A DNA stretch of 26,296 nucleotides, from assembly GCA_016840855.1 (NCBI GenBank), contig JAEORO010000165.1, forward strand, positions 1 to 26,296, given 5' to 3'. The position numbers and the translations under genes were made by a program. Below the pieces are notes generated by a model. The model was given only the letters and a program-made list of their open reading frames with translations. It ran no database searches and was not told where the DNA came from. Shown piece after piece: positions 3,787 through 5,809 of this stretch. The first letter of the stretch is position 1, and the number at the start of each line of letters is the position of its first letter. This DNA comes from Candidatus Thorarchaeota archaeon. GTDB taxonomy: Archaea; Asgardarchaeota; Thorarchaeia; Thorarchaeales; Thorarchaeaceae.

Positions 3787-4574
3787 GATTTCAACCAGAG
3801 TTCCATGAACTTCTCTTTCTCCTTTGGAAAATCTGAGAAGCACTCGCACATCAAAAGGAATCGATTATCATAGCCACGTTGTTTTAATTCCCGGAAAATT
3901 GTGTCAAAATCAATTTCGCCTTCGCCAATGGGTAGATGTGTGTCATACCTTACAGCCAATTCACGAATCTCACCTTGAGAAACCTCTCGCTCTTTCTTTA
4001 GTTTCAAGACATCATCTATCATTTTAGATCCGTGATTGTCATGTACATTGACCATAGCAATCCTATCATAAAATGTTGAAATATGATCTAGTGCTCTGTT
4101 TCTAGTTGCTAGAATCTGACCATGACCAATATCAAGAGCCATCTTCATATCAGGAAACATATCAAATAGTAGCTGGGTTTCGGTATAGTACAAGCCTTGA
4201 GTTTCTACAGCAAGAGTCACACCTGACTCTTTGGAAGCCTCACAAGCGAGAGGCAATGCTCTTAGAAAGATGTCAATATCATCATCATCATAGAAGAGAG
4301 ATGATAGCATAGTATGAAACGTCACAAGCTCTGCATCAATCTGCCGCCCCAGATCTATATAGGGAACAATGCCTCGACTAAGCTCAATGGGTTTCCAGTC
4401 AGGGTTACTTGGTAGATGAAGGGTACACTGAATACCTGCGTCATTCAAATCTTTCTTTGCTTCAGTGAAATCAATGGTGAAATTCAGGTCCATCCTCAGA
4501 TCGATAAAATCAGGTTCATTCTTTGTGGCGCTTCGTATCTGTTCGTTGTTACGTGCGAAGGTTCCTATCTTCAT
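3783..4574 (-). CDS. Sugar-phosphate isomerase/epimerase (xylose isomerase-like / AP endonuclease 2 TIM barrel)
   Basis: TLHLP, LAVE, ALDIGH, VHDN and HLPIGEGEIDF motifs. Its stop overlaps the convergent gene's stop at TTAA 3783-3786. Confidence 0.85.
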   Translation of the reverse strand: MKIGTFARNNEQIRSATKNEPDFIDLRMDLNFTIDFTEAKKDLNDAGIQCTLHLPSNPDWKPIELSRGIVPYIDLGRQIDAELVTFHTMLSSLFYDDDDIDIFLRALPLACEASKESGVTLAVETQGLYYTETQLLFDMFPDMKMALDIGHGQILATRNRALDHISTFYDRIAMVNVHDNHGSKMIDDVLKLKKEREVSQGEIRELAVRYDTHLPIGEGEIDFDTIFRELKQRGYDNRFLLMCECFSDFPKEKEKFMELWLKS

Positions 4575-4720
4575 CTTGTACGACCCTTAGGTTGGAAGGG
4601 ATGAATATGCCTTTTCTCACTTTTGGTGGATATTCTCCAGTTCTCCCTCGTAGAGATAGAACATGGGCGATAGTGTTATTAGATGAATAGCGTTTTCAAC
4701 AGCTATAGACGCTATTTCGC

Positions 4721-4726
4721 GGAGTG
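4721..4726 (+). promoter_or_regulatory. Putative ribosome-binding site GGAGTG, 8 nt upstream of CTG 4735
   Basis: The same GGAGTG hexamer precedes the ATG starts at 11554 (7 nt) and 23526 (10 nt). Confidence 0.6.
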
Positions 4727-4734
4727 GACAGACC

Positions 4735-5262
4735 CTGCCAGAAAATGTTGACTACTTATTTAAGCTGGTCTTCTTGGGAGAAGGAGCAGTAGGGAAAACC
4801 AGTCTGGTAGGTCGGTATGTCTATGATAGCTTTGAGGGCGATTACTTAGCGACTATCGGTACGGACATACATGTAAAAATGGTGACCGTCGATCAAACAG
4901 TAGTCAAGCTGGTAATCTGGGACATAGCTGGCCAAGATAATTTTGCACAGCTTCGAAGGGCGTACTACATGAATGCTTCTGGAGCATTCTTTGTTTTTGA
5001 TACAACGCGACCTGAAACTCTTGAGCGTGTGGATGAATGGATCAACGCTCTTTTTACAGTAACTGGGAAGATTCCCCTTGTGCTTCTAGAGAACAAAGTC
5101 GATCTTGATAGTGCACTAACAGAAGAAGAGAAGGATGCTGTGAAGAAAAAACATAGCATTCCGATAATTCCGACGAGCGCCAAAGAAGATACAAATGTTG
5201 AAGAAGCTTTTAGACAAATGACTCGTGACATACTTGTCAAGTCGCGTATCAAAAAGAGTTAA
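4735..5262 (+). CDS. Rab-like small GTPase 1 (probable CTG start, 175 aa)
   Basis: G1 GEGAVGKT, G2 ATIG, G3 WDIAGQ, G4 NKVD, G5 TSAK. In-frame upstream sequence (L)PENVDYLFKLVFL supplies strand beta1. The exact start is inferred. Confidence 0.92.
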   Translation: MPENVDYLFKLVFLGEGAVGKTSLVGRYVYDSFEGDYLATIGTDIHVKMVTVDQTVVKLVIWDIAGQDNFAQLRRAYYMNASGAFFVFDTTRPETLERVDEWINALFTVTGKIPLVLLENKVDLDSALTEEEKDAVKKKHSIPIIPTSAKEDTNVEEAFRQMTRDILVKSRIKKS

Positions 5263-5287
5263 CTCACAGCGTGAAAGGAGTTATGCA

Positions 5288-5809
5288 ATGGTGAGCAACG
5301 CGCAACCCGACTTTGTTCATAAGCTTGTGTTCCTAGGTGACAGTAGCGTTGGAAAGACCTCGCTAGTGCAGCGTTATGTTTACGACAGTTTAGCTCCAGA
5401 CATTGGTCGAACCATTGGAGCAATGTTGCATGTCAAATCTGTTGACTTTGAGGGGGCAAAGCATAAACTCGTAATTTGGGATCTTGGAGGACAAGAGTCC
5501 TTCTCAGCCCTGCGAGAACAATACTGCGCAAATGCATCTGGGGCATTCTTTGTTTTTGATAGGACACGCATCGATACACTGAAACATATTGATGATTGGC
5601 TTAATGCACTGTACAATGCTGCTGGAAAAGTTGCTGTCGTGGTTGTTGAGAATAAAATGGATTTAGAAGCTGTAATCTCAGACGATCAGATTAAGGGAAT
5701 GCTAGAAGCTCGTTCATTGAAGCATATTCAAACAAGCGCTACAGAGAACTTGAATGTGAACAGGGCGTTTGAAGAGTTAGTAAGGGAGATACGTACATCA
5801 AAGAGATGA
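5288..5809 (+). CDS. Rab-like small GTPase 2 (173 aa)
   Basis: G1 GDSSVGKT, G2 RTIG, G3 WDLGGQ, G4 NKMD, G5 TSAT. AAGGAG at 5275-5280 precedes ATG 5288. Confidence 0.92.
   Translation: MVSNAQPDFVHKLVFLGDSSVGKTSLVQRYVYDSLAPDIGRTIGAMLHVKSVDFEGAKHKLVIWDLGGQESFSALREQYCANASGAFFVFDRTRIDTLKHIDDWLNALYNAAGKVAVVVVENKMDLEAVISDDQIKGMLEARSLKHIQTSATENLNVNRAFEELVREIRTSKR

Follow-up and report, generated by a model that had tools for sequence, protein, structure and literature searches.

Positions 1 to 26,296 of contig JAEORO010000165.1 (26,296 nucleotides (nt), referred to here as the window) belong to the assembly GCA_016840855.1 of a Candidatus Thorarchaeota archaeon, a member of the Asgard lineage, which is the archaeal group closest to eukaryotes. 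The window (contig C112; the assembly totals 3.36 Mb, is 92% complete and has 24 small-GTPase matches) carries two adjacent small-GTPase genes on its forward strand, and the first of these, GTPase 1, is very probably translated from a CTG codon (4735–4737) that is read as CUG in the messenger RNA (mRNA). The coding sequence taken from this codon (4735–5262, +) comprises 175 codons followed by TAA at 5260–5262 and encodes a Ras/Rab-like small GTPase. It matches the Pfam Ras profile (PF00071) with E = 1.1e-43 and 149.1 bits (cut-off 21.6), residues 10–167 corresponding to profile positions 1–161 of 162, and a complete Ras-family domain is therefore obtained from the CTG. The β-1 strand and P-loop are encoded at 4762–4800 (+; KLVFL-GEGAVGKT, residues 10–22), and the mapping of profile position 1 to residue 10 bears out an earlier note on this DNA, in which the β-1 strand had been placed directly before the P-loop in the frame upstream of TTG 4774. 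Small GTPases share the motifs G1 (the P-loop, GxxxxGK[ST]), G3 (DxxGQ), G4 (NKxD) and G5 (SAK), which are found here as GEGAVGKT, WDIAGQ, ENKVD and TSAKE, respectively. A eukaryotic Rab proper also has a C-terminal cysteine prenylation motif; GTPase 1 ends ...ILVKSRIKKS with no cysteine in the tail, and lacks this Rab feature, so that ‘Rab-like’ denotes sequence similarity only. Its nearest solved relatives are Rab38 (aligned from residue 5), Rab23, Rab32 and a Thorarchaeota Rab of the same protein family (PDB 7ezb; E = 7.5e-32, residues 5–170), and in databases its closest homologs bear the names GTP-binding protein or Rab family GTPase, with Thorarchaeota as the source. Published work on Thorarchaeota Rab-like GTPases deals with the proteins, and the accessible part of it contains nothing on start codons (PMC10933270). 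The second gene, GTPase 2 (5288–5809, +), is a tandem paralog that is 48% identical to GTPase 1 and starts at an ATG behind AAGGAG (5275–5280).

The GTPase 1 frame is closed upstream by TGA 4684–4686 (+; TAA in the orthologous locus L012, no stop in L005), which is followed by 16 sense codons, by CTG 4735–4737 and then by PENVDYLFKLVFLGEGAVGKT...; the translation around the CTG is ...SRSGQT-LPENVDYLFKLVFLGEGAVGKT. It had been claimed that this frame contains no ATG, GTG or TTG from TGA 4684 to TTG 4774, and reading of the frame confirmed this. The first canonical in-frame start is TTG 4774–4776 (+), at residue 14, where other orthologs have CTC, TTA, CTT, CTA or CTG; because Ras profile position 1 is residue 10, initiation there would delete positions 1–4, i.e. 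β-1. The hexamer GGAGTG, said to precede the CTG by 8 nt, was found at 4721–4726 (+); it is Shine-Dalgarno-like, and its core, GGAG (4721–4724), begins 14 nt before the CTG. The same hexamer does stand before two ATG starts of open reading frames (ORFs) within the window (11554, −; 23526, +), a pattern that does not exceed chance (3 matches, with 2.34 expected). Support for the C at 4735, which the earlier note had advised checking in reads, was sought in Logan contigs (assemblies, not raw reads) of two other studies: one contig spans 4560–4760 with 0 differences, and the second spans 4658–4907 and differs by 3 substitutions, all away from 4735, with neither insertion nor deletion. The base is C in both, and the objection that it could be an assembly error thus fails; CTG is also found at the aligned codon in 21 other loci of the genus.

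Three ATG codons lie close to the CTG. The first, ATG 4745, does open an out-of-frame ORF of 15 codons (4745–4792, +) as had been reported, but the suggestion that it competes with CTG 4735 does not hold up well: the GGAG begins 24 nt before it, as against the 12–15 nt at which such sequences peak in this genome, and competition is therefore unlikely. This ATG, which thus has no GGAG at the usual distance, is formed by Asn-Val codons that vary among orthologs and is not conserved. The other two were absent from the earlier note. ATG 4683–4685 overlaps TGA 4684, is one base out of frame with GTPase 1 and opens a 22-codon ORF that ends at TGA 4749, and ATG 4663–4665 (+) is in frame with GTPase 1 upstream of TGA 4684 (MGDSVIR, then stop); other loci have ACG, CTG, GAG or ATT there, and it is not taken to be the GTPase 1 start.

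Conservation at the CTG codon

Of the 28 genomes available for the genus, 24 have the tandem GTPase pair. The 25 loci that they provide were compared, together with an outgroup locus (L026) from another family of the same order. Alignment of the orthologous codon, a check that had been proposed with the original claim, gave CTG in 22 and TTG in 3 of the 25 genus loci. In the outgroup, the aligned codon is GTG, placed 7 nt after GGAGG, and it is the sole canonical in-frame start past the upstream stop. The aligned start codon is hence NTG in 26/26 loci (CTG 22, TTG 3, GTG 1). Leucine codons served as a control: nine other columns that encode leucine throughout the 25 loci use four to six different codons, with CTG and TTG together making up 8–56%, whereas the start column is CTG or TTG in 25/25, and CTG accounts for 14% of leucine codons elsewhere in these genes. 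The fixation of this column, set against the variation in the other leucine columns, indicates that the constraint is on the nucleotides N-T-G and not on leucine.

The surroundings of the codon are conserved in a manner consistent with a translation start. GGAG begins at −17 to −12 in 24/25 genus loci (−14 in the window), and positions −14 to −11 are nearly invariant, the overlying codons switching between Arg and Trp. Across the genome, GGAG before the first ATG of long ORFs (2432 in all) peaks at −15 to −12, with counts of 60, 68, 71 and 90 against approximately 5–20 elsewhere, and the GGAG at −14 before CTG 4735 falls inside this usual Shine-Dalgarno distance. Mean column entropies for the three codon positions were found to be 0.24/0.23/1.40 from +3 to +89 and 1.19/1.19/1.17 from −36 to −1; three-base periodicity is thus seen from the CTG onwards and not upstream of it, and coding constraint begins at CTG 4735. 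In seven loci (L001, L021, L003, L008, L007, L009 and L020), the stretch of the frame from the upstream stop to the CTG is free of ATG, GTG and TTG, and the next canonical starts lie 13, 13, 4, 24, 46, 24 and 48 codons downstream, respectively, which is past the P-loop in four of the seven. It is the aligned NTG, the well-placed GGAG, the onset of periodicity and these seven loci with no alternative start that together uphold the proposal of CUG initiation made from the window alone.

The partner gene behaves differently at its start, with ATG in 15, GTG in 6 and TTG in 4 of the 25 loci. The earlier note had suggested that initiation at CUG might tune the level of GTPase 1 against that of GTPase 2, and a weak CUG acting in this way would fit the data.

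The upstream motif and alternative starts

A 21-nt motif, GGCGATAGTGTTATTAGATGA (4666–4686, +), lies upstream of the GGAG and has TTATTA at 4676–4681; it includes ATG 4683, which is out of frame, as well as TGA 4684, which is in frame. It was matched in 23/25 genus loci at up to 6 substitutions, 21 of them with no more than 4, the 5-substitution matches in L014 and L015 being weak. The motif begins 69 nt (12 loci), 68 nt (10 loci) or 74 nt (1 locus) before the start codon, and because its frame relative to the gene toggles in this way it is not coding in all loci. It was observed to be more conserved than the coding sequence. No second copy was found in the genome at up to 3 mismatches, and Rfam gave no match at 4540–4800. 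The arrangement, with TTATTA approximately 55–59 nt before the start, resembles the archaeal layout of a B recognition element (BRE) and TATA box. From this resemblance we infer a BRE/TATA-type promoter of the GTPase pair, and more generally the motif may serve the pair as promoter or operator; on the promoter reading, ATG 4663 and ATG 4683 would sit in or before the promoter. TTTATA in 363 Shine-Dalgarno-led genes of the genome forms a weak cluster at −90 to −40 (14/16 occurrences), which is too weak to test the motif. A conserved upstream ORF encoding MGDSVIR was considered and rejected, since ATG 4663 is not conserved. Between the motif and the GGAG there is also a 6-bp inverted repeat (ATAGCG 4687–4692/CGCTAT 4710–4715), which by eye is retained in several close orthologs and not in distant ones.

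The position of ATG 4683 within this motif bears on the possibility that translation starts there (MNSVFNSYRRYF...) and enters the GTPase frame through a +1 shift, either a programmed one or an apparent one caused by an insertion or deletion error in the T/A runs. The 22-codon ORF does overlap CTG 4735, the same ATG is in frame and open in nine other loci, and the window has GTTTTC where some of those nine have GTTTC. Nevertheless, this route is very unlikely: the contigs of the two other studies contain no insertion or deletion, the ATG belongs to a DNA motif that is kept regardless of frame at 68 or 69 nt before the start, and the codon periodicity is absent upstream of the CTG. Moreover, in-frame stops separate this ATG from the CTG in L009, L014, L015, L017 and L020, the outgroup starts at the aligned GTG, and no conserved slippery site is visible.

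Near-cognate codons upstream of the CTG, namely ATA 4687 and ATT 4714, are both in frame and lie after TGA 4684, and one gene family of the genus seems to start at ATC or ATT (see below), so a start at either of them was weighed too. It is highly improbable, as neither codon is conserved (among the first 20 loci, ATT is found at −21 in 6 and ATA at −48 in 4), neither has a GGAG at the usual distance, the conserved GGAG lying downstream of both, and the region they occupy has no periodicity.

A start at TTG 4774, which gives a protein of 162 amino acids and is the choice made by gene callers, or alternatively a gene that is decaying into a pseudogene, can hardly be credited. This TTG is the first canonical start, and public 162-residue versions of the protein begin MGEGAVGKT; such a protein would lose Ras profile positions 1–4 and with them the β-1 strand, the codon is not conserved as a start, and purifying selection is clear at residues 2–13, periodicity being present from +3 on. 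The conservation of the whole gene in 24 of the 28 genus genomes speaks against decay. Least likely of all is a start at ATG 4663 with readthrough or selenocysteine decoding of TGA 4684. In its favour, this ATG is in frame, L005 has AGA in place of the TGA so that its frame is open from that ATG, and ARAGORN reports a gene for selenocysteine transfer RNA (tRNA-SeC). Against it, L012 has TAA as the stop, other loci have ACG, CTG, GAG or ATT in place of the ATG, 10 loci have the motif in a frame other than that of the gene, there is no upstream periodicity, and the other ORFs of the window close normally under translation table 11.

Probable CTG starts in other genes

CUG initiation appears, from the comparison of orthologous genes, to be a recurrent and conserved habit of the genus and of related genera of the family, and is not special to GTPase 1. 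A strict screen of the genome took long ORFs and considered the codons situated 12 or more codons ahead of their first canonical start. Here CTG was the codon most often preceded by a ribosome-binding site: for GGAG the counts were 9/161, against 146/11566 for all codons, and for GGAGG they were 6/161 and 36/11566. Six of the nine candidates were traced into orthologs of the genus; the five that lie outside the window have CTG after GGAG or GGAGG, lack a canonical alternative and are conserved in the genus. For an MTHFR gene (C255:16948), 24 loci gave CTG (22), CTT followed by TTG (1) and GTG (1), with GGAG in 23/24; an in-frame stop stands at −6 in four loci, and the Pfam domain begins at residue 6, ahead of the next canonical start (+37 codons). 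A PUA/PAPS-reductase gene (C25:20132) has CTG in 25/25 loci and GGAG in 25/25 (2 of 27 loci, in which the N-terminus is off the contig, were left out), with a stop at −3 in six. Among nine loci of this gene from other genera of the family, CTG is found at the extrapolated position in 3, and by eye a CTG after GGAG lies a few codons off in 2 more; in other families of the phylum the gene starts at ATG. An unnamed protein encoded on the minus strand (C211:9540) has CTG in 21, TTG in 1 and CTA in 1 of 23 loci (2 of 25, at contig ends, left out), its next canonical start being 71 codons downstream.

In an ABC permease gene (C15:12302), 18 loci gave CTG in 6 and TTG in 3, the rest not being aligned at the codon (3 of 21 loci at contig ends were left out), and by eye an ATG is found nearby in some distant loci. 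A gene for a secreted protein with Ig domains (C49:2460) has CTG in 9 of 28 loci and ATG at the same place in 2, and the rest differ. The window itself holds a second gene of this kind, at 177–920 (−), whose apparent CTG start (920–918) lies 8 nt after GGAGG (933–929), 15 nt downstream of an in-frame TAG and 14 codons upstream of the first canonical start. The aligned codon is CTG in 7 of 23 loci, ATG in 1 (L094) and TTG in 1 (L103), and differs in the rest; the gene has no Pfam match. Taken together, CTG has been kept over long divergence and has not drifted to ATG in four genes (22/25 loci for GTPase 1, 22/24 for MTHFR, 25/25 for PUA/PAPS-reductase and 21/23 for the unnamed protein), whereas the start of GTPase 2 cycles between ATG, GTG and TTG.

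Several further observations concern starts in this genome and genus. In two further candidates, C68:9152 (−) and C159:18793, GGAGG is followed after 7–9 nt by CTG, the next canonical start is 12 codons downstream, and there is no Pfam match. In nearly all of the PUA/PAPS-reductase loci (L109–L133), an out-of-frame ATG, TTG or CTG follows the GGAG directly (GGAGATG, GGAGTTG or GGAGCTG), 10 nt before the CTG, and in L125 the triplet makes ATG-TAA; this triplet may represent extended pairing with ribosomal RNA (rRNA) or a start-stop ORF of minimal length. Secreted Ig-domain proteins of one family (C236:5402–5419, L068–L081) have a strong AAGGAGG or GGGGGG site with ATC or ATT 5–8 nt further on, and no ATG, GTG or TTG before the signal peptide. 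ATC 5417 is the only fitting codon in the C236 gene, L075 has a stop 9 nt upstream, and AUC or AUU may serve as the start in this family. Genome-wide, ATG (414), TTG (185, in second place) and GTG (87) were counted as starts behind GGAG, these numbers being uncorrected for background.

Proposed initiation mechanism and implications

The components that would read such a codon were sought in the assembly and in the family. No 3′ end of 16S rRNA was found in the assembly with short motifs, and ARAGORN, run with or without introns, found no tRNA-Met there, although it did report the tRNA-SeC gene. Rfam gave 38 tRNA matches, with a single CAU tRNA that is elongator-like, and a search of the assembly for the initiator-type stem-loop motif gave one hairpin alone, which is not a tRNA. 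In 61 genomes of the family, by comparison, an initiator-type anticodon stem-loop with CAT occurs 19 times; ten of these loci were inspected and have tRNA-like 3′ flanks, and six end in an acceptor sequence plus CCA. The corresponding search with a CAG anticodon gave 5 matches against 7 in the chance control (both variants together), and two that were inspected are not tRNA-like. As the CAG matches are within chance and the inspected pair do not resemble tRNAs, a dedicated CAG initiator seems unlikely in the family. The family initiator tRNA genes (L165–L175) are seemingly interrupted in the region of the D-arm or T-arm. ARAGORN found nothing in 8 family loci that have an initiator-like sequence; the interruptions are probably introns, which would explain these misses.

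Under the best explanation, the mRNA of the GTPase pair would begin a few tens of bases upstream of the gene, probably behind the TATA-like motif at 4666–4686. GGAG 4721–4724 would then pair with the 3′ end of 16S rRNA and set the CUG in the P site, where the ordinary initiator tRNA (anticodon CAU) could read it through a first-position mismatch, as it does GUG and UUG. The product would be a 175-residue Ras/Rab-like GTPase, most likely with methionine first, that has a complete β-1 strand and P-loop. The coding boundary, the conserved NTG and GGAG and the lack of alternative starts are shown by the comparison of loci; in the rest of this scheme we infer the promoter, the pairing of the methionyl initiator tRNA, the nature of the first residue and any consequence for the level of expression.

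A number of points weigh against CUG initiation or against parts of this scheme. An in-frame, open ATG is present 51 nt upstream in 9/25 loci (L022, L002, L006, L010, L013, L016, L018, L024 and L019), and a longer form of the protein may exist in these species. The orthologs come from related species and are not independent trials. A looser screen of the genome was weak: CTG followed GGAG in 56/1882 cases (3.0%), the background being 2.0%, and two other codons, CAG and TCC, scored as high, so that only the strict screen stands out. Since neither the 16S 3′ end nor the initiator tRNA was found in the assembly, the pairing is deduced from relatives. Base profiles upstream of 1675 first ATGs have no TATA peak and no clear genome consensus, and no RNA run containing the stretch was found.

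Start codons other than AUG, CUG among them, are known. Archaea permit AUG, GUG and UUG starts, and the factor aIF1 discriminates against AUU, according to a review (PMC4705826). The GUG and UUG starts of Shine-Dalgarno-led mRNAs in archaea and bacteria, described in the same review (PMC4705826), provide a close likeness: the GTPase 1 start is likewise an NUG preceded by a Shine-Dalgarno sequence, its reading presumably relies on the normal initiator tRNA despite a mismatch at the first position, and some orthologs have TTG or GTG in its place. It differs in that the first base is C. CUG itself is rare: of approximately 69,000 reconstructed ancestral prokaryotic starts, only 4 switched to CUG (PMC5622118). 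In Deinococcus deserti, CTG and ATC starts have been confirmed by N-terminal peptides (PMC4007540, which cites Baudet et al. 2010), and these are, similarly, rare starts on leadered prokaryotic mRNAs that gene callers had missed (PMC4007540). That organism is, however, a bacterium, with experimental proof and one gene per codon in Table 2 (PMC4007540), whereas the present case concerns an Asgard archaeon and at least seven gene families, conserved across a genus, whose CTG starts are predicted from sequence. Eukaryotic near-cognate initiation resembles it too, CUG being described as a working but weaker start (PMC4705826). In GTPase 1, by contrast, the codon would be selected by a Shine-Dalgarno sequence 10 nt upstream and not by scanning and Kozak context, and no alternative AUG isoform is evident. 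A search of the open-access literature and bioRxiv, which is no proof that none exists, found no relevant report of CUG/CTG starts in archaea or in Asgard archaea. The CUG start is thus a known kind of deviation, in a group for which no published report was found.

The consequences for annotation can be seen in public databases. A P-loop can be recognised in 114 of the 120 best database homologs, and the starts called for these 114 are spread over 26 offsets, which range from +13 to −42 codons with respect to the CTG. Of the 114, 11 are called at the CTG-aligned codon (two examples begin MPENVDF..., as expected where the codon is TTG), 12 are cut into the β-1 strand, and many carry spurious extensions. 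Some public calls were seen to translate the upstream DNA motif, as ...GDSVIRR.... Given CUG starts in this group, standard gene finders wrongly truncate these proteins or extend them. Work on Asgard small GTPases treats them as forerunners of the eukaryotic membrane-traffic switches and takes their sequences from automatic gene calls; constructs and alignments built on miscalled starts would be wrong.

A set of CUG-start genes across the genus and its sister genera would mean that start choice is wider than the AUG/GUG/UUG rule of gene finders, and provides a testable case for how strict start selection was in the archaeal relatives of eukaryotes. It can be suggested, tentatively and with more doubt than confidence, that Asgard archaea of the Thorarchaeota type have re-tuned their start selection, such that CUG (and in one family AUC/AUU) is a regular, selectively maintained start on Shine-Dalgarno-led mRNAs. 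If this is true, CUG would either be read efficiently in this lineage or hold certain proteins, for example one member of the GTPase pair, at a low set level, and it would represent a step toward the eukaryotic near-cognate start repertoire in the closest archaeal relatives of eukaryotes.

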